This document shows, piece by piece, positions 10,170 to 40,943 of a DNA stretch of 64,000 nucleotides. Made by a program: the position numbers and the translations under genes. The stretch is taken from positions 324,017 to 388,016 of the forward strand of contig CAWJKH010000007.1 in NCBI GenBank assembly GCA_963843515.1, read 5' to 3'. Every line of letters begins with the position of its first letter. Within the stretch, counting starts at the first letter, position 1. The notes under the pieces are model-generated. The model was given only the letters and a program-made list of their open reading frames with translations. It was not told the DNA's origin and did not search any database. This DNA is from an uncultured Actinomycetota bacterium. Its GTDB lineage: Bacteria; Actinomycetota; Thermoleophilia; RBG-16-64-13.

Positions 10170-10188
10170 GCTAGGAGGCTGCAGCCTG

Positions 10189-11376: not shown

Positions 11377-11520
11377 CGGGTGTGCATTCTACCGGGAGCG
11401 GGCGCCGGACGGGCGAGCCGGGGCGGCCCCTGCCGCCGGCCGCCTCGCTGTTGGAACCCGGGCCGGCTGCTGATATTGTGGCCTGGAGCGTTAGGGGGAA
11501 GCGCGAGGCAGAGGAGCCCT

Positions 11521-13088: not shown

Positions 13089-13107
13089 GGATCGCGGGCG
13101 CCAGGGC

Positions 13108-14145
13108 TCACAGCGACGCCGGTAGCGCGAGCTTGAGAAGTCTGGCCACGTTGCCGCCCAGAATCTTCGCCTTGTCCTCGTCGCTGATTTCCATGGCGTC
13201 GATGGCGCCGATGGTCTGGGGGTAGCTCCTCAGGCCGAAGGAGGGGTCGCCCAGCGGCATGTCGGCGGCGAAGATGATGCGGTCCGCTCCCCAGAAGCTG
13301 TAGGCCAGCATCAGCGCCGACGTGTTCCCGTGGATGGCCGTGTCGTTGTAGAACATCTTGAAGTAGTCCAGGGGAGCCTTCTTCAGCCGGCTCGCAGATC
13401 TCGCCGTAGTCGTGGTAGGCGCTTTCGAAGCAGACCGTAGTGCTGTACATCCGCTGCTCGAAAAACGACACCATGCCGCCGCCGTGGTGGGTGACGATCT
13501 TCAGGTTGGGGAAGTGTTCGAACAGGCCGCTGAAGACGATGCGGGTCATGGCCGCGGTGGTCTCGTACGGCCAGCCGAAGGTGCTGGCGATGGCGTACTT
13601 CGACTCGTCCTCGGTCGCATACTCCGGCGAAATCGTTGCCCCGCCACGGGATGGATGTAGATGGGCAGATCGTAGGCGCCATCTTCTCGAAGAGGGGCAG
13701 AAACTCCGGCGCATCGAGGGGCTTGCCGTTGATGTTGCTGTGAACGTAGATGCCTTTGAATCCCAGCTCCTTGATGGCCCGGTCGGTCTCGTCGAGAGCC
13801 GCCTGCGACGTCGTTCATGGGAAGGAGGGCGATGGCGGCCACGAAGCGATCCGGGTACTTGGCGATCAGTTCCGCCATCTCGTCGTTGGCCAGGCGGGCC
13901 AGCGCCGCTGCTCGGGCGGGGTCGGCGAAGTGCTCCAGCGGCGGTACCGGACCCACGGTCAGCACCTGGGCGATGGGGGCGAAGGCGTCCATCACCTTGA
14001 AGCGCGTCTCCATGTCGAAGAGGGGTGGGGTGATCCCGAGGATCTGTTTGTAGAAGCCCGGGAACTCGCGGCGCAGGGCTTCGGTGTATCGGGCCGGCGA
14101 GATGTGGGCGTAGCCGTCGATCTTGAGCGTGGGTGTGGCGGTCAT
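13108..14145 (-). pseudogene. amidohydrolase-2 (ACMSD-like decarboxylase/hydratase) family gene, at least 4 frame breaks
   Basis: AGGAGG then ATG at 14145 (MTATPTLKIDGYAHISP). Segments QAALDETDRAIKELGFKGIYVHSNINGKPLD, YDLPIYIHP, ISPEYATEDESKYAIASTFGWPYETT...VTHHGGGM and LKKAPLDYFKMFYNDTAIHGNT...AADMPLGDP lie in alternating frames. Breaks near 13388, 13640, 13678 and 13806. Confidence 0.75.
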
Positions 14146-20600: not shown

Positions 20601-23196
20601 CACCCGCACCATCATGCAGGTGAAGATCGCGGCGGCGGCTCCGGCGCCGACCTTCAACCTGACCAAGCTGCGCACCGCCTTCTCGCACAAAGCAGACGGC
20701 TCCGGTGTGTTCGAGTCAGGCCAGCACCCGATCATCGTCGGTCAGGCCCCGTACAACTCCGCGTACGGCGCGACCTTCGCGGCGTCGGGATACTGCAACG
20801 CCGATGGCAGCACCAGCACGCGGTGCGACGGCTATGCCCGCATCAACGACCAGGGTGGCGACATGTTCAAGTTCAACACCCTGAGGACCGGGACCGGCGC
20901 AACGATCTCGGTGAAGATCGAGCCCAAGGCCATCCACGACGAGACGAACGCCTCAGCCTTCGATGAGTTCGGTAGAATGCAGGCCAACCTGGGCGTCGAG
21001 GTCGTCCCGGCCACTCCCGGCCTGCAGAACGTGGTCCTGCACCCGTACACCTTCCCGATAACAGAGATAATCGACACTTCCGGATTGCCGACAGCGGACG
21101 TCAAGGTGACGCCCATCTCATCGGGTGCCGATGGAACGCAAATCTGGAAGATCACCCACAACGGCGTCGACACACACCCGATCCACTTCCACGCCTACGA
21201 CGTGCAGGTGCTGAACCGGGTAACGTGGGACAACATCATCATTCCGCCGGATGCCAACGAGCTCGGCTGGAAAGACACGCTGCGGATCAGCCCGCTGCAG
21301 GACACCATCGTGGCCCTGCGGCCGGTGATCCCCAAACTGCCCTTCGACGTGCCGAACAGCATCAGGCTGCTCAGCCCGATGGCGGACAACGAATGCGCCC
21401 ATAGCCCTGTCGACAGTTGATCTCGCCGCCGGCATCGCCCCAAGGGCGGTCGCGCCGGACGGAAACCCGGTCGACATCTACAACCACTACGTCAACTTCG
21501 GCGCCGAGTACGTCTACCACTGCCATATCCTCAGCCATGAGGAAATGGACATGATGCGTCCCGTCTCGCTGGCCAACCTGCCGAAAGCTCCGACAGGGCT
21601 CACGGCGGCCAAGGTCGGCAACGGCGTCCTGCTCACCTGGACCGACAACTCGTTGGCCGACACAGCGTTCGCGGTCCAGCGCCAGCCCCTCGGCAGCGCG
21701 AGCATGGGAGGACGCCGGCGTCATCCTGATGTCGCTGAACCGCCGCTCTGCCGGTGACCGATCTGTCGAATCCGAGGTTCATGGGTACCCGGACCTTCAC
21801 CGACACGACCGCGACCGGGTCGGTGACCTACAAGTACCGGATCGAAGCTCGTAACACCGTGGGTGACACGGTCGATTACGGCGCGGCCGGTCCGGTAGCC
21901 AACTTCCCGACTGTCACCACCCGGGCGTACAGCAACATCGTCGACGGTCCGGTTGCTCTCACCCGATATGACAACACCGACAGTCGCATCTTCTACACCA
22001 CCGGCACGCCCAACACCACCTGGGAGAGATTCCCCGCTACCGGGACCACGACAGGTCCGTATCAGGGAAGCTACCAGCGCACCCGGTCCAACAATGCCTG
22101 GTCGATGATCGCCTTCAACGGCACCCAGTTGTCTGTGATCGCTACCAAAGGCACGACCCGGGCACCATGCTGGTGTCCGTCGATGGAGGACCGAACCACC
22201 CAGGTCAACCTGAGCAACGGTCGGTCGTCCAGTACCAGCAGAACGTCTTCACTACCCCCGTGCTGCCTGCAGGAATCCATACGGTGAAGCTCAGCCGGTC
22301 GACCACCCAAGCCAACGACCCGTACATCAGCCTCGACGCGGTTGACGTGATCGGCGACTCTGGTATCGTTCACCCGAGTCGACGCCGCGTACACCGCGAG
22401 CGCGTCGAGCCAGATCCGCTTCTCCGGTCCTCGACCCAATCCGTGGGCGAACTTCGAGCCCGGGGGTAGCACCGCCTGGAACATCAACTACGCTCGCGCG
22501 AACGTGAACGGCTCCACGGTCACCATCCCCTTCACCGGTGTCCGGCTCGACTGGATCGCCACGAAGGGCACGACTCTGGGCATCGCCAACGTGTCCGTCG
22601 ACGGAGGAGCGACCACTCAGGTCAACCTGAACAACGCGGTCGTCCAGTACCAGCAGAGGGTGTTCAGCACCGGTACCCTTCCGAGCGGTCCCCACACTCT
22701 GACCATCAGCTGGGCCAATGTGGCGTCTAACACCACGCCCACCACGGACTTGTACGTCAGCATCGACGCCGTCGAGATCTTCGGCGGCGGACTGGTGGCG
22801 AATACCAGGACGCAGCAGACCGCGATACCGCCGCTCGACTACACCGGTCCGTGGGCGATGTTCACGACGGCCAATGCGTCCGGAGGCAGCTACACTCGAC
22901 TCAACGCCAACGGTCAGATCAGCATCGATTTCACCGGCGTGCGGCTCGGGTGGATCTCCACCGTCGGCTCGACCCTGGGTCTGGCTCAGGTGTCCGTCGA
23001 TAACGGAGCCTGGCAGGACGTCAACCTGAACGACCCCAACAACACGTGGTACCAGCAGGACGTGTGGAGCGTCGTGGTTCCCTACGGCGTCCACAACGTG
23101 AAGATCAGATGGGCCAACGTGGCATCTAACACCACTCCCAACCCGGATAGGTACATCAGCGTCGACGCGATCGATGTGGCAGGGACCCTGCAGTAA
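17638..23196 (+). pseudogene. giant secreted multicopper oxidase (~1850 aa if repaired): Gly/Thr/Ala-rich repeats, MCO core, FN3-like domain and 3 CBM-like beta-sandwich repeats; about 10 frame breaks
   Basis: Signal/anchor MSRRIIRRSSTTKLSIVFFVVLAAAL. Copper motifs HLHGG, YHDHAWG, HPIHFHAYD and HCHILSHEEMDMM. One continuous protein runs through ORFs 17581, 18476, 18564, 19738, 21545, 21754, 22167 and 22504. Breaks near 18560, 18650, 19715, 21390, 21700, 21755, 22160, 22195, 22225 and 22355. Confidence 0.8.
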
Positions 23197-26682: not shown

Positions 26683-27690
26683 ATGCGATATCTGGTCACA
26701 GGGGCGACCGGTTTCGTCGGTCGGGAAGTGGTCCGCCAGCTTCTGGGCGCGTCGTTCGAGGTGGTGGCGCTCGCCCGCGACCCGGCGGCAGCCGCGGCCG
26801 GGTACGCCGATCCGCTGGCCCGGCCCGGTGTGACTCTGGCTCGCGGCGACGTGACCGACAAAGAGTCCATGCGGGCCGCCATGACCGGGGTCGACGGCGT
26901 GTTCCACGTGGCCGGCTGGTACCGGATCGGCGCTCGGCACAAGACTCCGGCCTTCACCACCAACGTGGACGGCAGCCGCAACGTGCTCGAGTTGGCCGGC
27001 GAGCTTGGGGTGGCCAAGACGGTCTACACCAGCAGCCTGGCCGTCAATTCCGACACTCACGGCCGGATGGCGGACGAGAGCTACCACTTTACCGGCCGGC
27101 ACCTCAGCGCGTACGATCTGACAAAGTGGCGGGCTCACTACGAGGTGGCGGTGCCGCTCATGGCCGCAGGGCTGCCGCTGGTCATCGTCGCGCCCGGCGC
27201 CGTGTACGGCCCGGGCGACCATGGTCCGCTCGCCGACGTCTTTCGTCTCTACCTCAGGGGGGAGCTTCCCCTCCTCCCCAAGCGCTGCGCGTACTGCTGG
27301 GGATATGTCACAGACATCGCGCGGGCTCATCTCGTCGCCATGGAGAAGGGGGTCGCCGGCCAGTCGTACATCATCTCCGGACCCTGCCACGAGCTCAGCG
27401 AGGCCCTGAGACTGCTCCAGAAGATGACCGGCCTCCCCCTCCCCCGTCGGAGCCCGCCTCCGGCCCTGCTGAAAGGCGTGGCCGCAGCGCTGAGCCTGAT
27501 CGAGCGCTTCCACCCCGGGCAGGACATGACGTCGGCCGAAGCCATCCGGGTGATGGCCGGGGTGACCTATCTGGGCTCAAACGCCAAGGCCAAGCGGGAA
27601 CTGGGGATCGAGATGAGGCCCCTCGAAGAGGGACTGAGACAATCGCTTTCGTGGTATCGGGAGTACGCGCATACTCATGGGAATCACTAG
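26683..27690 (+). CDS. NAD-dependent epimerase/dehydratase family protein
   Basis: MRYLVTGATGFVGREV Rossmann start at 26683. The YxxxK region (SAYDLTKW) is present. Confidence 0.8.
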   Translation: MRYLVTGATGFVGREVVRQLLGASFEVVALARDPAAAAAGYADPLARPGVTLARGDVTDKESMRAAMTGVDGVFHVAGWYRIGARHKTPAFTTNVDGSRNVLELAGELGVAKTVYTSSLAVNSDTHGRMADESYHFTGRHLSAYDLTKWRAHYEVAVPLMAAGLPLVIVAPGAVYGPGDHGPLADVFRLYLRGELPLLPKRCAYCWGYVTDIARAHLVAMEKGVAGQSYIISGPCHELSEALRLLQKMTGLPLPRRSPPPALLKGVAAALSLIERFHPGQDMTSAEAIRVMAGVTYLGSNAKAKRELGIEMRPLEEGLRQSLSWYREYAHTHGNH

Positions 27691-27740
27691 CAGGCTGCGT
27701 GAATGGAGGGATCGTGGACTTCAAGCCCGAAGCACAGCGC

Positions 27741-28520
27741 ATGAAAGACAAGGTGGTGCTGGTCACAGGAGGCGGAGGCACCAACAGCATCGGACGCTCG
27801 ATATCGCTTCGCTTCGGCCTCGAAGGGGCAAAGATCGGCGTGCTCGATATCGACGAGCCGAGCGCGGTATCGGTGGCCGGCGAGATCAAGGCGGCCGGCG
27901 GGGAGGCGATCCCCATCCACTGTGACATCACCCACCTCGACCAGTGCCACGCGGCGGCCAAGCTCCTTGCCGACACCTACGGCGGCCGTATCGACGTCCT
28001 CGTGAACAACGCCGCTGCCTTCCGTGGCGTCCTCTCGAAGCAGGGGTTCCGGAAGTTCACCGAGTGGTCGGTGGAGGATTGGGACTACATGCTGGACGTC
28101 AACCTGCGGGGCATGTGGTTCTGCGCCCAGGCCGTCTATCCCTACATGCAGCCCTTCGGATACGGAAAGATCGTCAACATGACCTCCACGACCTTCTGGG
28201 AGGGCGTGCCCGGCTTCATCCACTACGTGTCGAGCAAGGGCGGCATCATCGGGTTAACGCGGGCGCTGGCCCGCGAGCTGGGGCCCGAAGGCATCCGGGT
28301 GAACGCCATCGCCCCCGGCTTCACGCTGACCGAGGCCAACATGGAACAGGCGGCGGACGCCCGCGAGCACTGGGACGAGGTGCTGCGCCAGCAGTGCCTG
28401 CCTCAGCGCCACGAGGTGGCCGACGATCTCGCCGGACCGGCATTCTTCCTGGCGTCGCCGGACAGCGACTTCATGACCGGGCAGACCTTCCTCGTCGACG
28501 GAGGCCTGCGCCACAACTAG
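27741..28520 (+). CDS. short-chain dehydrogenase/reductase (SDR)
   Basis: MKDKVVLVTGGGGTNSIG, NNAA, YVSSKGG, IRVNAIAPG. Confidence 0.85.
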   Translation: MKDKVVLVTGGGGTNSIGRSISLRFGLEGAKIGVLDIDEPSAVSVAGEIKAAGGEAIPIHCDITHLDQCHAAAKLLADTYGGRIDVLVNNAAAFRGVLSKQGFRKFTEWSVEDWDYMLDVNLRGMWFCAQAVYPYMQPFGYGKIVNMTSTTFWEGVPGFIHYVSSKGGIIGLTRALARELGPEGIRVNAIAPGFTLTEANMEQAADAREHWDEVLRQQCLPQRHEVADDLAGPAFFLASPDSDFMTGQTFLVDGGLRHN

Positions 28521-28572
28521 ACGCCCACGCCGCGCCGCCCCGCACCGACAACCGACAAGGAGTCACTGCAGC

Positions 28573-29479
28573 ATGGCCAGCAAGCCCCTCGAGTACCAGG
28601 TCTTACATGCATAGCCACCCCGGCTTCAACAGCACGTCCACGCTGTTCTACGGGGAGCGGGACGCCGTTCTCATCGACGCCACCCAACTCCTGAGCGACG
28701 CCCACCGGCTGGCCGCCGACCTCATCGACATCGGCAAGAACATCACCCACATCTACGTGTCCCACTTTCACCCCGACCATCACTTCGGCGCGGGGGTGCT
28801 CAAGAGCGCCTTCCCCCGAGCCCACGTGGTCGCCCTGCCCAGCGTGGTGAAGGACATCGTGTTCACCACCAACGACAAGGTCGACATGTGGGGCGACTTC
28901 TTCGGCAAGAACGAGCCCGAGACGGTCACTCTTCCCCATGCCTCTCAGCGAGCCCCGGCTCGAGGTGGAAGGACACGTCATCGAGTTCTCCGACGACTGG
29001 GAGGGCGACAGCGCCAACAACAGCGCTGGTCTGGGTCCCGTCGCTGGGCGTGGTCTGCGCCACCGACGTCGCTTATCTCGACTGCCACGTGTGGATGACC
29101 GAGAGCAACGCGGCCCGCCGGAAGAAATGGCGCGCGGACCTCAAGAGACTGCGCGAGTTCGACGCCCAGGTGATCGTCCCCGGACACGTGAGCCCGGAGA
29201 AGCTGGCCGTCAGAGACACCTCGTGTGTGGACTGTCCCCTCCGCTACATGGACGTCTACGAAGAGGTGCTGGCGCGTGCCAAGACCGGGCTCGAGCTCTG
29301 GGAGGGCGTGGAACAAGGCCTATCCCGGCATGAAGGCCGTGGATTTCGGCCTGCAGTGGAACGCCCGCCTGCTCTTCCCGCACAGTTGCCCCGACTGGTT
29401 CGCGCCGCTGCCGGGCGAGCCGGGCACCATCTTCCTCGATCCCAGCGGGGTGTTCGGCGGCGACCCGCCGCGAGACTAG
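28573..29479 (+). pseudogene. MBL-fold metallo-hydrolase, 4 frame breaks
   Basis: MASKPLEYQV then HPGFNSTSTLFYGE...SHFHPDHHFG, then MPLSEPRLEVEGHVIEF, then LVWVPSLGVVCATDVAYLDCHVW, then NKAYPGMKAVDFGLQWN...PPRD*. Breaks near 28608, 28934-28937 (CCCC run), 29025 and 29308. Confidence 0.7.
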
Positions 29480-29590: not shown

Positions 29591-32002
29591 TTACGGCCCG
29601 GACTCGATCGTCCCCCAGATGTCCACCGCGTCCACGGTGAGGAACTTGCCCGCCGCACTGGCCGGGCTGCGCACGATCTGCACCGTATGCTTCCCCTCGG
29701 GGAGAATGCCGGTGGACCAGACCTTCACCTGATAGGTGGCTGTGGCGGCTGCTAGGTCGATGGGCGTTGGGGTCATCTTTACCCCGTCCAGGTATACGTC
29801 GGCCTTACCCGTGGTGGTGCCCTTTGTGGCAATCCAGTCGAGGCGGGTACCGGTGAAATAGATGGTGGCCGAGGCGCCGCTCGTCGTGGAGCGGCCGTAG
29901 CTTCCTCCCGATGCCGCCTCCTTATAGAAGGCATCCCAGGCGCCCGAGTAGACGATGAGGGGATCGGTCTGCTCATGACGGGGCAGGTAGGCATAGTTGT
30001 TGGCCGTCCCGGTCGGGCTGCTCGAGCCCCAGGCCGTGGTCACTACCACGTCCACCGTGCCGACGGCATGGGCGGGGGCCACGGCCGTGATCTGGCCGGA
30101 CGAGTTCGCCACATAGCTCGCGGCCGGAGTGCCCCCGAAGGTGACGGCCGTCACATCCGTGAAGCCGGCGCCGGAGATGGCGACCGAGGTACCACCGGCC
30201 GCCGCGCCCGAGGCCGGAGCGACGCCGCTCACCGCCGGCGGAGCGTGACCGAGGCTGCCCACGACCTCGATCGCGTCCAATGTCAGGTACTTGCCCACCG
30301 CGCTCGCGGAGTTGCGCACGATCCTGACGGTGTGCGAGCCCTTGGAAAGCGTTCCGCTGGACCAGACCTTCACCTGATAGGTGGCGGTGGCAGCGGCCAA
30401 GTTGATGGGGGTCGGGGTGACCTTCGCTCCATCCACGTACACGTCGGCCTTTCCGGTGCTGGTGCCCTTCATGGCGATCCAATCGAGACGGGTGCCGGTG
30501 AAGTAGATGGTGGCCGAGGCGCCGCCGGTCGCGGAACGGCCGTAGCTTCCCCCGGAGGCGGATGTCTTCGCGAAGCTGTCCCAGGTGCCCGAATAGACAA
30601 GGTGCGGATCGGTCTGCTCGTACCGAACGGTGTGGGCCGTGTCGCTGTAGGTGAAGTCATCGGAGGCGGTGTCCTCGGAACTGCCCCCCGCGGTGGAGAC
30701 CTGCACTCTCGCGGCGCCTTCGGCATGGGCGGGAGCGAGCGCGGTGATCTGGGTGGGCGAGTGGACGGTGTAGCTCGTGGCCGGGACGCCGTCGAAGGTG
30801 ACCGCCGTCACATCGACGAAGCCGGTGCCGGAGATGGTGACCGAGGTGCCGCCGGCGACAGCACCGAAAGCCGGGGTGAGCGCGGTGATGCCGGGTGGAC
30901 CGTAGCTCAGACTGCCTACCACATCGACCGCGTCCACGGTCAGGTACTTGCCCGACGCGCTTGCCGGGCTCCGGACGATCTCCACCTTGTGTTGCGCCTC
31001 AGGGAGGACCCCCGTGGACCAGACTTTCACCCGATAGGTGGCCGTGGCGGCAGCCAAGTCGATGGGCGTCGGGGTCACCTTCACCCCGTCCAGGTATACG
31101 TCGGCCTTGCCGGTAGTGGTGCCCTTCGAGGCGATCCAGTCCAGGCGGGTGCCGGTGAAGTAGATGGTAGCCGAGGCGCCGCTCGTCGAAGAACGGGTGT
31201 AGCTTCCCGCGGAAGCCGCCTCTTTCAAGAAGGCATCCCAGTGGCCCGAGAAGCGGATACGTGGATCAGGCTCCTCGCGACGACGGCATTGGCCGAAATC
31301 GGGGGCGGTCACCGTGAGCCTGTCGACGTAGATGCCACCGATCTTGTACGTCGCCGTGTTCTGACGCATTTGCGCGTAGGGATGCCAACCTCGGGAGTCG
31401 AGCCACGCCGTGGTCTGACAGAGGTAGGTCGCCAGCCCATGCTGATACACCCAGTCGACGGCGTCGTATTCGCCGTAGACGCCTATCTGAGACAGGGGCA
31501 CCACCGAGCCGACTCCCCGAAAATACGCGTCTATCAGACTACCGTCGGTGAGGTTGAAGTCAACCGTGTAGTAGACGGGCGTGGTGGTGGGGACCCCCAG
31601 GCTTGCCAGGGCGGCCAGTGCGTCGTGCGCATCCGCCACGCCGGCGGCGAAGCCCTCAGTCGCCCGCCCGTGGTTGCCCGAATCCTCCAGCCAGAAGAAG
31701 TAGTCGACGCCGGCCGCCGTGGCCGCTTCGAGCTCGGCGGTGGTGACACGCCGCCACGCTGCCCCCTCCACCGGCAGATACCGCCCGATGAAGTCGCGCC
31801 CCGTGGCCTTGAGCTCGCGGAAGAACGCAGGCCAGTCGACTTTGGTGCTGGAGTAGTCCACGCCGCGGCGGCTGAAGTCTTGCGCGACCGCCTCCGAGCC
31901 GGACGTGGCCAGCCCGGCGATGAAGACAGCCACCGCGACCGTCAGAAGGAGGATCCACCGTCCGGCAACGGCCCTCGTAGAGACGCGAGTGTGCTTCTTC
32001 AC
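29591..32002 (-). CDS. secreted DUF1906 (Rv2525c-like glycoside-hydrolase-like) protein with 3 CBM-like and 2 IPT/TIG repeats
   Basis: GGAGG then GTG at 32002, signal-like RWILLLTVAVAVFIAGLATSGSEAVA. DUF1906-like RGVDYS...FIGRYL...VYYTVDF...GVYG. Then (CBM-like + IPT) x2 plus a third CBM-like unit at about 80 percent identity between units. Intact frame. Confidence 0.8.
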   Translation of the reverse strand: MKKHTRVSTRAVAGRWILLLTVAVAVFIAGLATSGSEAVAQDFSRRGVDYSSTKVDWPAFFRELKATGRDFIGRYLPVEGAAWRRVTTAELEAATAAGVDYFFWLEDSGNHGRATEGFAAGVADAHDALAALASLGVPTTTPVYYTVDFNLTDGSLIDAYFRGVGSVVPLSQIGVYGEYDAVDWVYQHGLATYLCQTTAWLDSRGWHPYAQMRQNTATYKIGGIYVDRLTVTAPDFGQCRRREEPDPRIRFSGHWDAFLKEAASAGSYTRSSTSGASATIYFTGTRLDWIASKGTTTGKADVYLDGVKVTPTPIDLAAATATYRVKVWSTGVLPEAQHKVEIVRSPASASGKYLTVDAVDVVGSLSYGPPGITALTPAFGAVAGGTSVTISGTGFVDVTAVTFDGVPATSYTVHSPTQITALAPAHAEGAARVQVSTAGGSSEDTASDDFTYSDTAHTVRYEQTDPHLVYSGTWDSFAKTSASGGSYGRSATGGASATIYFTGTRLDWIAMKGTSTGKADVYVDGAKVTPTPINLAAATATYQVKVWSSGTLSKGSHTVRIVRNSASAVGKYLTLDAIEVVGSLGHAPPAVSGVAPASGAAAGGTSVAISGAGFTDVTAVTFGGTPAASYVANSSGQITAVAPAHAVGTVDVVVTTAWGSSSPTGTANNYAYLPRHEQTDPLIVYSGAWDAFYKEAASGGSYGRSTTSGASATIYFTGTRLDWIATKGTTTGKADVYLDGVKMTPTPIDLAAATATYQVKVWSTGILPEGKHTVQIVRSPASAAGKFLTVDAVDIWGTIESGP

Positions 32003-32210
32003 GTCGGCCCTCCTCCCTCCGCGGTGGGCGGCGCGCCCCAACCGGGCGGCCCTAAGTCCATTCTAAGGAGTCGGGGAGACCTGCGCAAAGGGGCGCCGAA
32101 ACATGTCCCGCTTCGATCTTGGTGGGCTTTCCCGGATAGGTCTACTGGCCGCGGCCCGGACGCGTTACTATGCCGTGGAGGTTGCGTCGACGCCGGGAGG
32201 CGACCGGAGA

Positions 32211-33509
32211 ATGGCCATTGCGATAGTCGGCATGCTTGACGAGCGCGAAGAAGCGCTCAGGATGATCCGCGACCGCATCGGCAGAGAGGACACGCCACCT
32301 GCCTGATTGACATTAGCATCGGGACCGGAGCCATGATCCCCACGCTCGAGGCGGATGTGAGCTCCGCGGAGCTCGAGGAGCTGGCCGGCTCCGGCGCCGG
32401 TGCCGGGCCGCTGGTCGGCGCCGGCGCCAAGACCGGCGGACAGGGCCCCGCGGCAGCAAGGGGCACGACGTCGACTTCAGTCGTTGCCGACGGCCTGAAG
32501 GCCAAGATCGTCGACCTGTACCGGCGGGGCGAGCTCGAAGGGATCATCGCCATCACCGGCATGACGGGCGCGCTCATCGTGCTGCCGGCCATGAGGGAAC
32601 TACCTTTCGGCGTCCCCAAGGTGCTCGTCTCGGGCGCCACGGCCAGCCGGTCCACGCCGCCAAGTTCGGCAGCTTCTTCTCCGCCCGCGACATCACGGTG
32701 ATGCACACCGTGGTCGACACCGTGGGCATGAACCCCCTGGTGAGGGCTCTGGCGCTGAATGGGGCCGACGCCATCTCGGGCATGGTGGAGGGCGGGCCGG
32801 TCTCCTGCAGGGCGAAAAGCCCTCCATCGGCGTCACGGAGTTCGGCTACTGCGACAGGGCGCGTACCACCTCCGCCAGAACCTGGAGGCGGAATACGAGA
32901 TCGTCTCCATCCACGCGATGGGGATAGGAGACAGGGCCGGCCTCGAGCTCGCCCGCCAGGGGATCTTCAAAGCCTTCGTCGACCTGGTGCCCGGGGCTTT
33001 CAGCGAGAACCTCCTCGGGGGAACCGGGATGCGGGGCCGGCCGCCTGGACGTGGCCGCCGCGCTGGACATCCCCTACATCTTCTGCCCGGGCGGCTTCGA
33101 CATCATCAGCTGCGGTCCCCTCGAAAGAAGAGACAGAGATGATCCGCTCTGGCAGTCGAGAAGGATCGCCGAGAGAAAGCTGTACCTGGAGGAACCGCCC
33201 AGGGTCCAGGCCAGAACGAGCGCTCAGGAGATGGAGCAGGTCGCCGCCGCGGTGGCGGATAGGCTCGGTCGCTACCGGAACAAGGCGAGGGTCAAGGCGC
33301 TCATCCCCCTGAGGGGTTTCTCCTCTCTTAGCGTGGAGGGCGCCCCGCTCTACGATCCCGACTCGGACAGGGCCTTCGCCCTCGCGCTCGAGTCCCGGCT
33401 CGACCCGGCGATAGAGCTGATCGAGGTGGATGCCGACATCAACAGCCCGGTGTTCGCGACGGCGGTCGCGGATGCCCTGGCCCGCGCGTTCATGGAGGTC
33501 GAAGCGTAG
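32211..33509 (+). pseudogene. UPF0261 (Tm-1-like ATP-binding) family gene, copy 1, at least 5 frame breaks
   Basis: MAIAIVGMLDEREEALRMIRDRIGR, GHATCLIDISIGTG...ITGMTGALIVLPAMRELPFGVPKVLVSGATA, DITVMHTVVDTVGMNPLV, EKPSIGVTEFGYCD, LEAEYEIVSIHAMG and AAALDIPYIFCPGGFDII...LRGFSS lie in alternating frames. Confidence 0.7.
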
Positions 33510-35296
33510 TGGACAAGGTGCAATTCGTCGACCAGACCATCCGGGACGCCCAGCAGAGCCTCTGGGGCAACATGATGCGGACCGACCACATCGTTCCCAT
33601 CGCCGAGATCATGGACAAGGTCGGGTACTTCGGGATCGCCACGGTGGGCTCGCAGGCGTTCACCATCCAGGTGCGCAACCACGGCGAAGACCCCTGGGAA
33701 AGGATCAGGCTTCTGTCGAGCCTGATGCCGCACACCCCTCTCCGGGGCTCGTACCAGACGGCGAGTCTCTCCTCCTTCGACCTGAGCACCCCTCGAGACC
33801 TGATTTCGCTGTGGATCAAGAGGTCGGTGGCCAACGGGGTGCGCAGCTTCTGGATCTGCGACTACCAGGAGAACATGGAGCGGTTCAAGTACTTCGCCCG
33901 GATCGCCAAGGCCGAGGGGGCCCAGGTGGTTACCTCGCTGATGTGGACGAGCAGCCCGCTCCACACGGCCGCCCACTGGGTGGAGAAGACCCGGCTGATA
34001 GCCGACGCCAAGGACTGCGTGGACCGGATCATGATCTCGGACGAGTCGGGGGTCATCACCCCCGAGCAAACGCGGGAACTCATCTCCCTCGTGCAGCGAC
34101 ACTGCGACGAGATACCGCTCGAGTTCCACTGCCACTGCAGTTCGGGGCTCGCCCCGCTCTGCTATCTGGAGGCCGTGAAAGCCGGGGTCACCACCCTGCA
34201 TACGGCAGTGGCGCCGCTGGCGAACGGAACGTCCCTGCCGTCCACCGAGGCGGTCCTCAAGAACCTGCGGCATCTGGGTTTCGAGTCCGACCTGGACGAA
34301 GACGCTCTGGCAGCCGTGTCCGCGCACTTCCGTGGCATCGCCGAGAGGGAGGGACTGCCAACCGGAAGGCCGGCGGAGTACGACCTTTTCTATCTGGAGC
34401 ATCAGGTGCCGGGCGGTATGATGACCAACCTCACCCGCCAACTCCGCGAGATCGGCATGGAAGACCGCCTGCCGCAGATCCTCGAAGAGACCGTCCGCGT
34501 GCGCCGCGACTACGGGTATCCCGTCATGGCCACCCCCTACTCCCAGATCGTGGGCGCGCAGGCGTTCGAGAACGTCGTCTCTGGAGAGCGATACGGGAAG
34601 GTGACCGACGAGTCCATCAAGTATCTGCTGGGCTACTACGGCGAGCCGTCGTTCCCGCTGGATCCGGAGCTGATGGCCAAGGTCATGAGCCTGCCCAGGA
34701 CGCGCGAGTTCCTCGACTGGAAACCGGAGGGGTATTTGAAGACCGTCGACGAACTGCGTCAGGAGCTCGGCCCTGATCTCTCCGACGACGACCTCCTGTT
34801 GAAGGCGCTGATCCCGGGGAGGCCCGTCAAGCGAGGCGGTCCGGAAAGACAAGCGCCGGCCGGCGCGGCGGCGCCTGAGGCGACGGCCGCGACCGCGGCG
34901 GCGACGGCCCTTGGGGGGGCGGTTCCCGCAGCGCCCGCCCTCCCGCGGGAGTTCAGCGTCGAGGTGGACGGCGAGGTCTTCCGCGTCAAGGTCTCCCCCG
35001 TGGGCGCCACTCTGGGCGACACCCGCGGCAGCGCCATCGAGGCCGAAGCCGAGCAGGCGCCGTCCCCCCCGGAGGAGCTACCCGAGGGCGCCATCGTGTG
35101 CGGCCTGGCGGGACTGGTGCTCTCCATCCCCGTGAAGGTGGGCGATTGCGTAGCCGAGGGCGACGAGATAGCCATGCTCGAGACCATGAAGATGAAGAGG
35201 TCGATCGCCGCGCCCAGGCCGGGGGTGGTGGTGGAGATCCGAGTGCACGAGGGCGAGATGCTGGTCGCCGAAGACGTCCTCATGGTAGTGGCGTGA
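33509..35296 (+). CDS. divergent carboxyltransferase (PycB/OadA 5S-like) with a C-terminal biotinyl domain
   Basis: 595 aa, intact. DQTIRDAQQSL and EFHCHCSSG (HxH) metal-site motifs, and a biotinyl motif IAMLETMKMK. The canonical IKDMAG reads ISDESG here. Confidence 0.8.
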   Translation: MDKVQFVDQTIRDAQQSLWGNMMRTDHIVPIAEIMDKVGYFGIATVGSQAFTIQVRNHGEDPWERIRLLSSLMPHTPLRGSYQTASLSSFDLSTPRDLISLWIKRSVANGVRSFWICDYQENMERFKYFARIAKAEGAQVVTSLMWTSSPLHTAAHWVEKTRLIADAKDCVDRIMISDESGVITPEQTRELISLVQRHCDEIPLEFHCHCSSGLAPLCYLEAVKAGVTTLHTAVAPLANGTSLPSTEAVLKNLRHLGFESDLDEDALAAVSAHFRGIAEREGLPTGRPAEYDLFYLEHQVPGGMMTNLTRQLREIGMEDRLPQILEETVRVRRDYGYPVMATPYSQIVGAQAFENVVSGERYGKVTDESIKYLLGYYGEPSFPLDPELMAKVMSLPRTREFLDWKPEGYLKTVDELRQELGPDLSDDDLLLKALIPGRPVKRGGPERQAPAGAAAPEATAATAAATALGGAVPAAPALPREFSVEVDGEVFRVKVSPVGATLGDTRGSAIEAEAEQAPSPPEELPEGAIVCGLAGLVLSIPVKVGDCVAEGDEIAMLETMKMKRSIAAPRPGVVVEIRVHEGEMLVAEDVLMVVA

Positions 35297-35297
35297 C

Positions 35298-36759
35298 GTG
35301 ATCGAGAAGATCCTCATCGCCAACCGGGGCGAGATAGCCGTCCGCGTCATGCGCGCCTGCCGCGAGATGGGCATTCGCTCGGTGGCCGTGTATTCCGAGG
35401 CGGACAAGGACGCCCTCTTCGCCAAGTACGCCGACGAGGCGTTCCTCATCGGGCCGGCGCCGGCTTCGCAGAGCTACCTGGCCACTCAGAAGATCATCGA
35501 TACCGCCAAGGGATGCGGCGCCGACGCGATCCATCCCGGTTACGGCTTCCTGGCCGAGAACCCGAGCTTCGCCGCCGCCTGCGAACGGGAAGGGATCAGG
35601 TTCATAGGGCCTTCGAGCAGGGTGCTGGAACTCATGGGCGACAAGACGGCCGCCAGGCGGGAGATGGTGAAGGCCGGCGTTCCCGTCGTCCCGGGCGGCA
35701 CCGAGTGCGTCACCGCGCCGGCGCAGGCAACAGCCGTCGCTCGCGACCTCGGTTATCCCGTGATCGTCAAGCCCTCGGGAGGCGGGGGAGGCATCGGGAT
35801 GACCGTCGTGGCCGGTGAAGAGGAGTTGCTGGACGCCCTCGCATCCACCCAAGCCATCGCCGCCAACACCTTCGGCATCGGGGACGTGTACCTGGAGAAG
35901 TACCTGCCCGATCCCCGCCACATCGAGTTCCAGATTCTCGCCGACTCCCACGGGCAACGTGGTGCATCTGGGCGAGCGGGAGTGCTCCATACAGCGCCGG
36001 CATCAGAAGCTCATCGAGGAATCCCCCTCCCCCGCGCTCGACGCCGAGACCCGCGGCGCCATGGGCGCGGTGGCGGTGAACGCCGCCCGGGCGGTAGGCT
36101 ACGAGGGCGCGGGAACGGTCGAGTTCCTCTGGTCCGACGGTGAGTTCTACTTCCTGGAGGTGAACGCCCGCGTGCAGGTGGAGCACCCGGTCACCGAGAT
36201 GGTCACCGGCATCGACATCGTCAAGGAGCAGATCCGCATCGCCTCGGGGCTCCCCCTGGGCTTCACCCAGGAGGACGTCAGGATGACCGGCGCGGCGATC
36301 GAATGCCGCATCAACGCCGAAGATCCGTTGAACGGCTTCGTCCCCACACCGGGCAAGATCAGGGGCTACAGTCCTCCCGGGGGGACCGGCATCAGGGTGG
36401 ACGGCGGAGTGTACACCTCCTACACCATCCCCCCTATCTACGACTCCCTGATGGCCAAGCTGATCGTCTGGGGCCGCGACCGGGACGAGGCCATCAGCCG
36501 GATGCAGCGGGCCCTCTACGAGTACGCGATCACCGGCATCAAGACCAACATCCCCTTCCACCAGGCGGTCATGGGAAACGAGAGATTCAGGCGAGGGGAG
36601 CTGGGGACGCATTTCCTGGAGCAGGAGACGAGCCTTATCGACGACATGAAGAAGTTCGCCGAGCAGGAGCAGAGCCTGGGAGAAAAGCTCTCCGGTCTGG
36701 GGGAAGACAAGAGGAAGATCGCGGCGATAGCCGCTGTGGCAGCCGTGATCCAAGGCTGA
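35298..36759 (+). pseudogene. accC: biotin carboxylase (AccC/PycA-type), single frame break at a GGG run
   Basis: MIEKILIANRGEIAVRVMRAC...ILADSHG, then [22 protein letters not shown]...[16 protein letters not shown]. Deleting one G of GGG at 35952-35954 restores CAC GGC AAC GTG. Confidence 0.85.
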
Positions 36760-36794
36760 CAGGCATCACCACGGGAACGATTGGGGGGCTACGC

Positions 36795-38039
36795 ATGGGT
36801 GAGAAGCCGAGAGTACTGTTGATCGCTACCCTCGATTCCAAAGAGGTCGAGACGCGGTTCATCCGCGACCGCCTCGAGGAGGCCGGACTGGAGGTCTACC
36901 TCCTCGACGCCAGCATCCGCCGCACGGTCGAGAGCGACGCCGCCATCACGCCCGACCAGATAGCCGCGGCGGTGGGGATGAGCATGTCCGAGATCCGCGC
37001 CTTGAATCACGAGGGCAAGTGCATGGCCCTCATGATCCAGGGCGCGATCGTACGGGCTCACGAGCTTGACGAGGTCGTCGGCTTCAGCGGCATCATCGCT
37101 GCTGGGGGCTCCGGGGGGACCACCCTGGGCACGGCTATCATGCGCACCTTCCCGTTCGGACTGCCCAAGGTCATGATCTCGACCATGGCTTCGGGCATGA
37201 CCAAGCCCTTCGTGGGCACCAAAGACATCGTCATGCTCAACTCGGTCTGCGACGTGGCCGGCCTCAACACGGTCACCCGAAGAGTGTTCCGCAACGGGGC
37301 CCTGGCGCTGGCGGGGATGGCGCACGGCTACGAGGCCTCCGTGGGCTCGGGCAAGCCGGTGGTGGCCATGTCGACCCTCAGCACCACCGACCGCTGCTGC
37401 AGCAGGGTCCGGGCGGCACTCGAGGGGCGGGGGGCTGAGGTCATGGTCTTCCATTCCCAGGGGACCGGCGGGCAGGCCATGGACGAGACCGTGCGGGAGC
37501 AGGACGTCTCGCTCGTGATAGATCTGTCGCTGATCGAGGTGGGCGACTATCTCGCCCAGGGCCTGTACGACGGCGGCCCCGACCGATGCAAGGCGGCCCT
37601 CGAGAAGGGGGTGCCGGTCATCTTCGCCCCGGGCAACATCGACTTTCTCGTCGACGGTCCCATCGAGGGGGCGAGGGCCCGCTTCCCCGGAAGGATGTAC
37701 CACATCCACAATGCCTCGGTCACCGCGGTCCGGGCGGATGCCGACGACTTCAGGCGTCTGGCCGAGCATATGGCGGGCCTCATCGCGAAGGCGAAGGGCC
37801 CGGTCGCCTTCTTCGTCCCTCTGCGCGGCTTCTCCTCACACGACAGCCCCCAGGGCCACCTGTACGACCCGTCGCTGCCACCGGTCTTCGCCGAGCATCT
37901 GCAGAAGGTGATGCCCGCCGGAGTCCCGGTGATCGTGCTGGACTACCACATCAACGACGAGGGCTTCGCCGACGCCATCATCGAGCAGGCGCTGCTGTTG
38001 CAGGGTCGGCAGCCGGAGGCCGAGAAGCTATCCTCATAA
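36795..38039 (+). CDS. UPF0261 (Tm-1-like ATP-binding) family protein, copy 2, intact
   Basis: MGEKPRVLLIATLDSKEVE...GGSGGTTLGTAIMRTFPFGLPKVMISTMASG...DVAGLN...FAPGNIDF. Confidence 0.8.
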   Translation: MGEKPRVLLIATLDSKEVETRFIRDRLEEAGLEVYLLDASIRRTVESDAAITPDQIAAAVGMSMSEIRALNHEGKCMALMIQGAIVRAHELDEVVGFSGIIAAGGSGGTTLGTAIMRTFPFGLPKVMISTMASGMTKPFVGTKDIVMLNSVCDVAGLNTVTRRVFRNGALALAGMAHGYEASVGSGKPVVAMSTLSTTDRCCSRVRAALEGRGAEVMVFHSQGTGGQAMDETVREQDVSLVIDLSLIEVGDYLAQGLYDGGPDRCKAALEKGVPVIFAPGNIDFLVDGPIEGARARFPGRMYHIHNASVTAVRADADDFRRLAEHMAGLIAKAKGPVAFFVPLRGFSSHDSPQGHLYDPSLPPVFAEHLQKVMPAGVPVIVLDYHINDEGFADAIIEQALLLQGRQPEAEKLSS

Positions 38040-38053
38040 CAGGGAGCTGCCCC

Positions 38054-39652
38054 GTGGTCGAAGAGGTGTTCCGCAACGAGCCCGCCGCCGACTTCTCGCA
38101 GGCGGCCGATCGAGAGAGCATGACAGCCGCTCTCACGACAGTGCGCGCCTCATTCGGGCAGACATATCCCCTCTTCATCGATGGCAGAGACGAGCCCGGG
38201 CGGCCTACGGCCGCCTCCATCAACCCGGCCCGTCCCGCGGAGGTGGTCGGCCACGCATGCCAGGCGACCGCCGACGACCTCGACGCGGCCGTGGCCGCGG
38301 CAGGAGTCGCCTTTTCGACGTGGCGTGAGATCGACGCCAAGTCTCGGGCGGCCTATCTGCTTCGAGCGGCCTCCGCACTCCGCAGCCGCGTGTGGGAGGC
38401 GACCGCCCTGCTCGTGTTCGAGGTGGGGAAGCCGTGGGAGCAGGCGAGCCACGACGTCGCGGAGGCCATCGATTTCCTCGAGTACTACGCGCGGGAGATG
38501 GTGCGGCTTGCGACGCCGGTGGCACTTCCCTCGGGACCCGGGGAGCCGGAGACGAACCGGCTCTTCTACGAGCCGAGAGGGGTGGCGGCCGTCATCGCCC
38601 CCTGGAACTTTCCGCTTGCCATAAGCTGCGGGATGGTCTCGGCGGCGGTCGTCACCGGCAACTGCGTCGTCTACAAACCCTCCAGCCTGTCCCCCGTGAC
38701 CGGCCATCTGCTCGTGGACATCTTCCGCGAGGCGGGACTTCCGCCCGGAGTCTTCAACTACGTGCCCTGCAGCGGAGCAGGTCTGGGCGATCGCCTGGTG
38801 GACCACGCCGAGGTCGCTCTGATCGCGTTCACCGGTTCGATGGAGGTGGGGCTCAGGATCTGCGAGCGGGCCGCCAGGCCGCAACCGGGACAGCGCCACA
38901 TCAAGAAGGTCATCACGGAACTCGGAGGCAAGAACGCCATCATCGTCGACGAGGATGCCGACATCGAGGCGGCGGTGCCGCGCATCGTGCGCTCGGCGTT
39001 CTCGTTCCAGGGGCAGAAGTGCTCGGCGTGTTCGCGGGTGATCGTGCTGGACAGCGTCTACGATGAACTGCTCGAGAGACTGGTCCCGGCAGTGCGCTCG
39101 CTCCGGATGGGCCCGCCCGAGTCGTACGGCAATGATGTCGGCCCCGTGGTGGACGCGGCCGCTCAGGCCAGGATCATGGGCTACATCGATTCGCCGGAGC
39201 TGGCAGGCCGAATCGTCTACCGCAGCGAGGTGCCCGACCCCGCGGTCGCCGCCGGCGGATTCTATGTGCCTGTGACCATCGTCGGAGATGTCACCCCTGC
39301 CGATCGCGTGGCCCAGGACGAGCTCTTCGGGCCGGTGCTGTCCGTGATGCGGGCGAAAGATTTCGACCATGCGCTCGACCTGGCCGTCTCGACGCCGTTC
39401 GCCCTCACCGGAGGCGTGCTCTCGTCAAACCCGGAACACTTGGCCAGGGCAGTCCTGCGATTCCGGGTGGGCAATCTCTACCTGAACCGAGCGATAACGG
39501 GGGCGGTGGTCGGCCGCCAGCCGTTCGGCGGTTTCGGCCTCTCCGGAGGGGGAACAAAGGCCGGCGGTCCGGACTACCTTCCCCATTTCATGAATCCGCG
39601 AGTCGTCACGGAACGGCATCTGGGGGCGGGGACTTTTCGAGTCCTCGACTGA
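38054..39652 (+). CDS. aldehyde dehydrogenase, L-glutamate gamma-semialdehyde (P5C) dehydrogenase-like
   Basis: AGGGAG then GTG at 38054. FTGS, ELGGKN, catalytic [11 protein letters not shown], and a C-terminal [22 protein letters not shown] typical of the PruA/RocA group. Confidence 0.8.
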
Positions 39653-40196
39653 GCCCGCCAAGGTCCGGGCTGAGGTCGATGGAGGCCCAGCATTCCTTGG
39701 TGAGGTCCATCGCGACCGGAGGGAAGCAGCCATGGATAAGCTTCCGGCCATGTGCCTGGAGATACCGGACCACCGGGATGATCCCCAGGTCACTGGAGAC
39801 GACGACTGCCCAGTCGAATCCGTCTTCGCGGGCGAGTTTGAGGAGATCGTTGGCAATCGGATTGTCGCGGCCCCGCCCGCCCCGGCCCTTGGTGCCCTCC
39901 ACGCAGTGCGTGCACGCCTTATAGCAGCTCCAGCAGGCGCGCTTGACCTCGGTCTCCTGTTGCCTGAAGACCACCCGCTGAGCCCCGCGCGGCTTGTCGG
40001 CCTCGAGATGCGAGTACACGTAGACGACGCCGAACGGAAGCCGCGCTTCCGGCGCCGGAAGCATCTTCGCCACGCCGGCCTCCAATAGCTCGACGACCGC
40101 GGTCACGTCGCGCCCGAACGCGCCCCCGCCCCGCTCCACCTGCCACCGGAGATCGGGCAGATCGATCAACGCTATGACCCGTGGACTGAAGGTCAC
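39606..40196 (-). CDS. NYN/LabA-like domain protein with an inserted Cys4 ribbon
   Basis: The GTG at 40196 overlaps the SDR stop (GTGA). IALIDLPD...[11 protein letters not shown]...[28 protein letters not shown] resembles the NYN acidic core (weak, motif-level only). Confidence 0.55.
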
Positions 40197-40943
40197 CCCC
40201 GCCCCACGAGTGGCATGTTCGTCGCCATCAAGGTCATGAACTGGACGTTCGCATCCAGCGGAAGCTCGGCCATGTAGAGGACAGCGTCGCCGACATGACG
40301 CAGGTCGATCCGTGGTTCCGGCCGTATCGAGCCGTCGGCTTGGAGAGCCCCTCTGCCGAAGGCGTCGGACAGCTCGGTGGCTGCATTGCCTATGTCTATC
40401 TGGCCGCACGCGATCCCATAGAGCTCGTCCCTCGAGCGAAATCGACTTGGTGAGGCCGGTAATAGCGTGTTTGGACGCCGTGTAGGCGACCGCATGAGGC
40501 CTGGGGACCTGAGCCGAGACGGAGCCGTTGTTGATAATGCGGCCTCCTTGCGGGCGCTGCTCCTTCATCAGACGAAAGGCCTCGCGGGCGCAGAGGAAGG
40601 AACCGGTCAGGTTGGTGTCCAGAACGGCCCGCCACTGTTCAAGGCTCATGTGCTCAACCGGGGCCGGGGTGCCGAAGATGCCGGCATTGTTGAAGAGGAC
40701 ATCCACTCGGCCGTATTCCTCGCGAGCTCGCTCGAAAAGGGACCGGACCGAGGACTCCTGGGTGACGTCCGTCGGCACCACCAGTCCATGGGATTCGTGA
40801 CCGGCCAGGGTGGTGCGGAGGGCTTCTTCTCGTCGCCCTGCCAGCACCACCCGATATGCCGCCTCAAGAAGCGCCGCGGCAACAGCGCGCCCAATGCCGG
40901 ATCCCGCGCCGGTGACAACGGCCACTCGGCTATCCTGTCTCAT
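40193..40943 (-). pseudogene. SDR-family oxidoreductase, single frame break
   Basis: [18 protein letters not shown]...[20 protein letters not shown], then [15 protein letters not shown]...MPLVGRG*. Break near 40425-40435 at a CCC/GGG run. Confidence 0.75.

Follow-up and report, generated by a model that had tools for sequence, protein, structure and literature searches.

Our analysis revealed a gene cassette that probably encodes a kinase and a biotin-dependent carboxylase for hydroxyphenyl ketones, as a variant of the Acv/Hpe/MarK systems in which a phenolic compound is phosphorylated and then carboxylated. The cassette lies in a stretch of 64,000 nucleotides (hereafter the window; positions 324,017 to 388,016 of contig CAWJKH010000007.1, GenBank assembly GCA_963843515.1) from an uncultured bacterium of the Actinomycetota (Thermoleophilia, RBG-16-64-13), whose genome assembly comprises 1.76 Mb on nine contigs with 66% G+C and is approximately 70% complete. 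Specifically, five plus-strand genes are tightly packed at positions 32211-39652 of the window (Table 1), namely a divergent UPF0261 paralogue (U1), a carboxyltransferase with a fused biotin carboxyl carrier protein (CT-BCCP), a biotin carboxylase (BC), a second UPF0261 protein (U2) and an aldehyde dehydrogenase. This co-oriented order had been described in an original prediction made from the DNA itself, and it was confirmed by open reading frame (ORF) coordinates together with Pfam and NCBIfam domains. BC, BCCP and a CT with HMGL-like and PYC_OADA domains, as found in Acv/Hpe-type systems, are all present and are clustered with the putative phenol kinase U2, which begins 35 nt downstream of BC. 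Lignin-type hydroxyphenyl alkyl ketones such as 4-hydroxyacetophenone or acetovanillone appear to be the most likely type of substrate.

U2 as a MarK orthologue

Hall et al. 2025 (PMC12624787) found that MarK (Saro_1862) from Novosphingobium aromaticivorans is a kinase that uses ATP, releases ADP and acts on acetovanillone and related phenolics, and that its gene comes first in an operon that also encodes the biotin-dependent carboxylase AcvCDE and the phosphatase AcvF. Residues D14-T15-K16 make up its nucleotide-site motif, in which Lys16 is critical (an E16K change led to a 1600-fold increase in activity), and in the structure (PDB 9MPY) the substrate is held by Gly195, His219, His304 and His348 (PMC12624787). 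With acetovanillone bound, H219 contacts the phenolic oxygen, H304 stacks on the ring and H348 binds the ketone oxygen. U2 matched 9MPY at E 1.4e-139 in an alignment over its residues 1-398, and BLASTP gave 54.6% identity. It showed hits to PF06792 (188.8 bits) and PF23189 (214.3 bits) and scored 485 bits against NF002674, for which the cut-off is 335. The nucleotide motif of U2 reads D-S-K, retaining Lys16 of MarK, and members of the U2 clade carry either D-T-K or D-S-K. Within the substrate pocket His219, Phe283, His304 and His348 are identical to MarK, and two positions differ, with Ser for G195 (a contact made through the backbone nitrogen in MarK) and Val for I285.

When all UPF0261 proteins of the fetched loci were placed in one tree, MarK and two plasmid-borne MarK-like proteins nested within the U2 clade. 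The MarK-type operons had been reached via a plasmid collection, and the best 120 matches of the protein search with U2 were all closer relatives than MarK. Since MarK is nested inside the U2 clade, and since the sequence is 55% identical and keeps residues of the nucleotide site and pocket, U2 is assigned as a MarK orthologue and predicted to be a phenolic kinase of this type. The original prediction had treated UPF0261 proteins as uncharacterised, a view that no longer holds given that MarK is an aromatic kinase working with a biotin carboxylase.

The carboxyltransferase groups with aryl-ketone carboxyltransferases

The AcvE-type CTs consist, like the window CT, of HMGL-like and PYC_OADA domains, and the window CT shares 34% identity with an AcvE-like CT. 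Plasmid operons of the MarK type, found on pBAR1 of Sphingomonas bisphenolicum and in Pseudomonas putida YC-AE1, encode, in this order, MarK, BCCP, BC, CT and a haloacid dehalogenase (HAD) phosphatase. The best plasmid match of the window CT was the CT encoded on pRB98 of Rhodococcus oxybenzonivorans (43% identity), in a cluster with a phosphoenolpyruvate (PEP)-utilizer/dikinase pair, a CoA ligase, BCCP, BC, an oligonucleotide/oligosaccharide-binding (OB)-fold protein, a thiolase and a phosphatase. We constructed a tree of CT domains with FastTree, rooted on the pyruvate carboxylase of Staphylococcus, in which the AcvE-like and pRB98 CTs served as proxies and HpeB and XccC were not included. 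The window clade joined the Rhodococcus and N. resinovorum CTs with a support of 1.0, and the AcvE-like CTs were added with a support of 0.95. PycB (5KS8), the transcarboxylase 5S subunit (1RQB) and OadA formed a separate clade, likewise supported at 0.95. A phylogeny against these three enzymes had been suggested with the original prediction, and it places the window CT outside their clade and together with the AcvE-like CTs.

The motifs point in the same direction. The window CT keeps Arg12, Asp13, Gln16, His207, His209 and Thr306 as well as the MKM biotinylation motif. It reads RDAQQSLWG in place of RDAHQSLxATR, the LWG being common to AcvE-like CTs, and LRGSYQ in place of LLRGQN, with Gln at the position of Arg. 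Both the QSLWG motif and the loss of this Arg are common to the window clade and the AcvE-type and pRB98 clades. At the position of the carbamylated Lys of the KDMAG motif most of the clade has Glu, and the Actinomycetota subclade that includes the window has Ser177 and Glu179 (ISDESG); the AcvE-like CTs keep the carbamylated Lys. All reference sequences of PycB, OadA, 5S and pyruvate carboxylase carry H, R and K at the three positions, none of which is retained in the window CT. In sequence terms, then, the window CT is a member of the group of AcvE-type aryl-ketone CTs and not an orthologue of PycB, OadA or 5S.

Two other members of the CT clade, from a Dethiobacter sp. (L055:1417-3192) and a Syntrophorhabdus sp. 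(L069:~10001-11743), have lost all four metal ligands (D13 to Leu, E177 to Gly, H207 and H209 to Gln) and are still of full length. Their neighbours are a BC, two flavin (FAD) oxidoreductases, a glyoxalase-fold protein, a UPF0261 gene and a dikinase. These CTs may be pseudo-enzymes or may have changed chemistry.

Conservation of the four-gene cassette

Thousands of close relatives of the CT were found in soil and sediment metagenomes. We retrieved 80 genome loci containing this CT clade and sorted them into four types by tblastn. Type I loci, with the strict order U1, CT-BCCP, BC, U2, accounted for about 33 of the 80 and belonged without exception to Actinomycetota or Acidobacteriota; the same order was found in six loci that were reached independently via CT or U1 proteins, and about 36 loci of these two phyla show it overall. 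Type II loci (Thermodesulfobacteriota, Syntrophorhabdales) consist of CT-BC followed by a different UPF0261 protein, a pair of PPDK_N and PEP-utilizer swivel-domain proteins, an AMP-forming CoA ligase and an OB-fold/thiolase pair. The PPDK_N and PEP-utilizer pair is HpeHI-like, corresponding to phenol dikinases of the AcvAB/HpeHI type. Some loci combine the dikinase with a further UPF0261 clade (Type III), and a few loci contain only the thiolase set and are free of kinases over 10 kb (Type IV).

Recurrence of the four-gene order in dozens of genomes is far from what chance would produce, and the adjacency is therefore not incidental. As had been proposed, the carboxylase pair and the two UPF0261 genes thus belong to one conserved functional unit. 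A lack of conservation in other genomes had been named beforehand as a possible refutation, and the neighbourhood survey found the neighbourhood conserved. No fifth conserved gene was found in the Type I loci. As candidates for a fifth and sixth gene, a 3-hydroxyacyl-CoA dehydrogenase and a protein of about 150 aa were rejected, as they adjoin the cassette in two related genomes only.

Some loci contained further genes worth recording. In some Type IV loci of Thermodesulfobacteriota such as L072:15909-18314, CT-BC and the OB-fold/thiolase pair are accompanied by an 801-aa glycyl-radical enzyme resembling pyruvate formate-lyase. The sole cultured and named carrier that we found was Desulfosarcina cetonica JCM 12296 (locus L084), an acetone- and aromatic-degrading sulfate reducer, in which three or four UPF0261 paralogues from different clades, including a U1-type one, surround the CT-BC pair.

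Proposed pathway

Orthology, residue conservation, clade membership and gene context are the observations from which the following four steps are predicted. In the first step U2 would phosphorylate the phenolic hydroxyl group with ATP, yielding ADP, as suggested by its 55% identity to MarK and the retained pocket and ATP-site residues. BC would then load the biotin of the CT-fused BCCP with a carboxyl group at the cost of ATP and bicarbonate; ATP- and bicarbonate-dependent carboxylation of biotin is established chemistry of this family. In the third step the metal-dependent CT (D13, H207 and H209, with E/S177 and E179 in place of the carbamylated Lys) would move the CO2 to the methyl carbon beside the ketone, and its clade membership and gene context point to a phospho-aroylacetate as product. 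Finally, this beta-keto acid might be converted to aroyl-CoA or an aromatic acid by enzymes encoded elsewhere. CoA ligase and thiolase genes are clustered with this CT clade in other phyla. The source genome of the window encodes beta-keto acid cleavage enzymes (BKACE), including a cluster of an HpeHI-like dikinase with BKACE on contig C6; a thiolase of the clustered type and an AcvF-like phosphatase were not found in this 70%-complete genome.

The region on contig C6 (C6:31746-47297) contains a BKACE-like gene, HpeI-like PPDK_N and HpeH-like PEP-utilizer proteins that are 41-45% identical to the pair of Syntrophorhabdus locus L041, a regulator, an old-yellow-enzyme-type reductase and a short-chain dehydrogenase/reductase (SDR). 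Also encoded there are an FAD protein that is run together with a further BKACE, a solute-binding protein and an acyl-CoA synthetase of the ADP-forming type.

Several points weigh against this assignment. The substrate of this cassette type is a prediction from homology and context. A dedicated phosphatase (AcvF/HpeD) is essential in the characterised systems, and tblastn searches found neither an AcvF-like HAD phosphatase nor a pRB98-like phosphatase of the protein tyrosine phosphatase type in the more than 80 loci or in this genome. Most Type I loci have no adjoining CoA ligase or thiolase. The CT is only 34-43% identical to CTs of characterised or annotated aryl-ketone clusters, and in raw score it is about as similar to PycB (290 bits) and OadA (257 bits) as to these. 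Since the Type IV loci are free of a kinase within 10 kb, phosphorylated substrates may not be universal in this CT clade. In many Acidobacteriota the cassette also lies amid housekeeping genes that do not indicate any particular substrate.

U1, a second and divergent UPF0261 protein

U1 is a distant paralogue with 26-27% identity to U2 and MarK (26% to MarK) and stays below every curated NCBIfam cut-off for UPF0261 (269 vs 335 bits). In the tree it falls into a clade of its own (support 1.0), with the UPF0261 proteins of the Type II loci as sister group (joint support 1.0); the latter occur with the same carboxylase in anaerobes relying on an HpeHI-like dikinase. Where MarK has D-T-K, U1 reads D-E-R(-E). 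All 21 proteins of the U1 clade carry E-R instead of T-K at MarK positions 15-16, as D-E-R in 20 and as E-E-R in the protein of locus L053. G195 and H219 are kept in the clade, and the position of H304 is Q in 19 of 21 and that of H348 is L, I or M, so that none of the 21 proteins has the D-T-K motif with the H304/H348 pocket of MarK.

U1 is abundant in soil metagenomes, where it is as a rule intact. Every Type I locus pairs it with a MarK-type U2, the only exception seen to this pairing being the D. cetonica locus, where other D-T-K paralogues are found instead. Given this constant company, and given a cassette without the required phosphatase, we speculate that U1 may be a partner of U2 or a phosphate remover. 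Tentatively, and with the odds still against it, U1 could thus represent a functionally new UPF0261 class and not a redundant kinase, either as an obligate heteromer with U2 or by taking the phosphoryl group off the carboxylated phospho-product (through hydrolysis or transfer back to ADP) in replacement of AcvF/HpeD.

Frame breaks in U1 and BC

At least five frame breaks in U1 and one in the BC gene had been reported for the window, and both counts were reproduced. Frameshift-aware alignment to intact orthologues revealed exactly five single-base breaks in U1, with missing bases near 32278, 32640, 32797 and 32856 and an extra base near 33028. U1 is 71-72% identical to these orthologues and has no in-frame stop. 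In BC, tblastn against orthologues and the sequence around the break indicated one extra C at approximately 35953. Related contigs lack one base at 35952, and the sole public run that shared 5% of the sampled words represents low-depth relatives and not this organism.

We consider it probable that these breaks are indel errors of long-read metagenome assembly and that the apparent pseudogene signals in this window are artefacts. A genome-wide scan with a codon-usage hidden Markov model, which recovers four of the five U1 breaks as well as the BC break, flagged about 449 frame switches without a stop codon (0.26 per kb) in this 1.76-Mb incomplete genome, with some on every contig. Within window positions 12209-46093 there were 22 of them, including those at 12209-13804, 18551-22357, 27634-29311 and 40428. 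Three long-read metagenome-assembled genomes (MAGs) from the same genus, together with locus L029 as the window cassette's closest relative, all few-contig assemblies from one soil survey, carry single-base breaks of their own in U1, CT and BC, and in one case in U2. Altogether 33 events were found over five genomes, including the six of the window; all were single-base and at different positions, with 24 insertions vs 9 deletions, and neither nonsense codons nor larger deletions were seen. The corresponding genes of L006 and two more complete MAGs (L002 and L005) had no breaks. The transcarboxylase-like 12S/5S/1.3S cluster on contig C6 (C6:101246-104672) is likewise distributed over several frames, so housekeeping-type genes are also struck by frame breaks. 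The ratio of non-synonymous to synonymous substitutions (dN/dS) was 0.15-0.22 for U1, similar to CT (0.15-0.23) and BC, and 0.11 between intact copies. The low ratio for U1 argues for purifying selection through essentially all of its divergence; at about 0.2, U1 does not resemble a long-dead gene, and the possibility, named with the original prediction as a refutation, that this copy is a dead pseudogene was not substantiated.

A true decay of the cassette in this genome, with U1 and BC as recently inactivated pseudogenes and a non-functional locus, is accordingly unlikely, although some observations are in its favour. The six breaks fall within 2.8 kb, U1 has more breaks than U2 in all of the same-genus MAGs, and the frame switches are strongly clustered across the genome (variance 45 vs mean 4.9 per 20 kb). 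A region of about 13 kb with rpoBC, rpsLG, fusA and tuf is free of any break, which means that the breaks are unevenly distributed and leaves room for a real and recent inactivation.

A minus-strand SDR gene at 39606-40943 runs on into an unrelated downstream frame.

Other functional readings of the cassette

The same chemistry might act on another class of substrate, such as other phenolics, aliphatic ketones like acetone or an endogenous metabolite. This would fit with the promiscuity of MarK itself (PMC12624787), with the Ser and Val replacements in the U2 pocket, with the kinase-free Type IV loci, with the housekeeping surroundings of many cassettes and with the occurrence of a CT-clade member next to several UPF0261 paralogues in the acetone-oxidising D. 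cetonica. However, U2 keeps each of the three His residues that contact the phenolic oxygen, ring and ketone oxygen in 9MPY, and the sister CT clades are found in aromatic-ketone clusters, so we regard a different substrate class as rather improbable.

A still weaker case can be made for a two-subunit pyruvate carboxylase (or a carboxylase of 2-oxoglutarate or another 2-oxo acid) of the PycA/PycB type, with the UPF0261 proteins as accessory or regulatory ATP-binding proteins. The domain architecture is the same as that of PycB and PycA, the best PDB match of the CT is Methylobacillus PycB 5KS8, the two BC halves match PRK08654 best, and the catalytic residues listed above are kept. The CT also passes the domain-level NF006761 'pyruvate carboxylase subunit B', if barely (419 vs 402 bits). 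It widely misses, however, all of the equivalog cut-offs, with 392 vs 756 for TIGR01108 (oadA), 299 vs 734 for PRK14041, 264 vs 1182 for PRK14042 and 238 vs 827 for 5S. In pyruvate carboxylase the Arg of LLRGQN contacts the carboxylate of pyruvate, and the roles of the active-site residues discussed here are those seen in structures of pyruvate carboxylase, 5S and OadA; in the window CT this Arg is replaced by Gln, in addition to the loss of the carbamylated Lys and the altered RDAHQSLxATR motif. A separate CT of the canonical 12S/5S/1.3S type, with RDAHQSLLATR, LLRGQN and KDMAG, is encoded on contig C6. This makes the window CT a paralogue distinct from the housekeeping enzyme. Considering also its position in the tree and the phenol kinases, CoA ligases and thiolases that are the partners of its clade, a pyruvate-type function is very unlikely. 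The description of the enzyme as PycA/PycB-like consequently stands at the level of domains and falls at the level of orthology.

That the cassette constitutes an undescribed route feeding the adjacent PruA-type aldehyde dehydrogenase, as had been suggested, can be dismissed almost entirely. In its favour, this gene has the same orientation as U2 and starts just 14 nt after it; against it, the gene was found by tblastn beside the cassette in none of about 85 other loci, the closest relative L029 included. It appears to be an ordinary L-glutamate gamma-semialdehyde dehydrogenase, passing NF002852 (654.2 vs 648 bits) and staying just below the equivalog TIGR01237 (651.6 vs 659.65 bits). Being absent from every other locus, it is an incidental neighbour outside the cassette. 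In L029 unrelated genes are located downstream of U2. At L029:14467-17270 these are an ORF of 395 aa without known function and, after it, an ORF for a methyltransferase with B12-binding and uroporphyrinogen decarboxylase (URO-D)-type domains, of the kind used in corrinoid-dependent O-demethylation of methoxylated aromatics.

Comparison with known systems

The closest known system to the predicted phenolic-ketone cassette is marK-acvCDEF of N. aromaticivorans (Saro_1862-1858; PMC12624787), with its plasmid copies on pBAR1 and in P. putida YC-AE1. Both have a UPF0261 kinase (U2 being 55-57% identical) beside a biotin-dependent carboxylase with an HMGL-like/PYC_OADA CT, and U2 keeps the Lys of the ATP site and the His residues of the acetovanillone pocket. 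Unlike in marK-acvCDEF, where AcvC is a separate protein, the BCCP of the window is fused to the CT, the genes are ordered U1, CT-BCCP, BC, U2, and the CT is only 34% identical, with Ser/Glu for the carbamylated Lys that AcvE-like CTs retain. Moreover, the cassette is without the HAD phosphatase AcvF and always includes the second UPF0261 protein.

The other described systems are the Hpe pathway of Rhodococcus rhodochrous GD02 with the dikinase HpeHI, the carboxylase HpeCBA and the phosphatase HpeD (PMC9618137), AcvABCDEF of Sphingobium sp. SYK-6 (bioRxiv 10.1101/2022.04.28.489975) and XccABC of Aromatoleum aromaticum EbN1. With these the proposed route has in common that a phenolic hydroxyl group is phosphorylated before a biotin enzyme carboxylates the acetyl methyl group at the expense of ATP, and members of the window CT clade in anaerobes adjoin HpeHI-like dikinases, CoA ligases and thiolases, similar to Hpe. 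It differs in that the kinase is of the ADP-forming MarK type and theirs is an AMP-forming dikinase, in that genes for a phosphatase, CoA ligase and hydrolase are all missing from the cassette, and in that the CT belongs to a separate clade, as compared via the AcvE-like and pRB98 proxies. With PycA/PycB of Methylobacillus flagellatus (5KS8) and OadA (2NX9) the window CT shares the architecture of a CT with C-terminal BCCP, and with PycB, OadA and 5S (1RQB) it shares the Asp, His-x-His and Thr catalytic positions. It is set apart from them by clade, by missing the RDAHQSLxATR motif, the LLRGQN Arg and the KDMAG Lys, and by scores below the equivalog cut-offs; in contrast to OadA systems, the window has no OadB or OadG membrane subunits.

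A phosphorylate-then-carboxylate route has been on record since 2022, and the UPF0261 kinase belonging to it since 2025. The ATP- and biotin-dependent route that had been put forward as undescribed is thus not new in kind, since MarK is known as a kinase working with a biotin carboxylase. The features that make the cassette a variant are the CT-fused BCCP, Glu or Ser for the carbamylated Lys, the gene order, the missing phosphatase and the obligatory U1; the 27 colocalised clusters of the MarK paper may include this cassette type.

If the proposed function is true, the phenolic-ketone route is not limited to a few cultured Sphingomonads and Rhodococci, and a compact four-gene form of it would be widespread in uncultured soil Acidobacteriota and Thermoleophilia-like Actinomycetota. 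This would have a bearing on the turnover of aromatic carbon in soil and would offer new enzyme parts for lignin valorisation. It also raises two biochemical questions, namely what the job of a D-E-R-type UPF0261 protein is in a phosphatase-free system, and how a PycB-fold carboxyltransferase can work when the carbamylated Lys is exchanged for Glu or Ser.

Gene layout and surroundings

The junctions given in the original prediction agree with the ORF coordinates. Base 33509 is common to the U1 stop and the CT start, and the following gaps are 1 nt (CT-BC), 35 nt (BC-U2) and 14 nt (U2-aldehyde dehydrogenase). The absence of a PEP-hydrolase-like TIM-barrel partner likewise held, as the flanking ORFs covered by the scan included no gene of the PF09370 type. 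An Rfam scan of the window gave no RNA family, and a scan for promoters and terminators around the cassette gave nothing beyond the shuffled expectation.

Table 1. Genes of the cassette and the adjoining aldehyde dehydrogenase, with positions in the window.
Gene	Position	Strand	Domains and state
U1, divergent UPF0261 (Tm-1-like) paralogue	32211-33509	+	Pfam UPF0261 fragments over three frames
CT-BCCP, carboxyltransferase with C-terminal biotinyl domain	33509-35296	+	HMGL-like, PYC_OADA, Biotin_lipoyl; 595 aa, intact
BC, biotin carboxylase of PycA/AccC type	35298-36759	+	Biotin_carb_N, CPSase_L_D2, Biotin_carb_C; two frames; 486 aa if read through
U2, predicted MarK-type UPF0261	36795-38039	+	UPF0261 N and C domains; 414 aa, intact
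PruA/RocA-type L-glutamate gamma-semialdehyde (1-pyrroline-5-carboxylate, P5C) dehydrogenase	38054-39652	+	NCBIfam NF002852

Directly upstream of U1 and in divergent orientation, an 816-aa secreted protein is encoded on the minus strand (29591-32041). It consists of an Rv2525c-like glycoside-hydrolase-like domain followed by three near-identical CE2_N-like repeats with two IPT/TIG domains interspersed.

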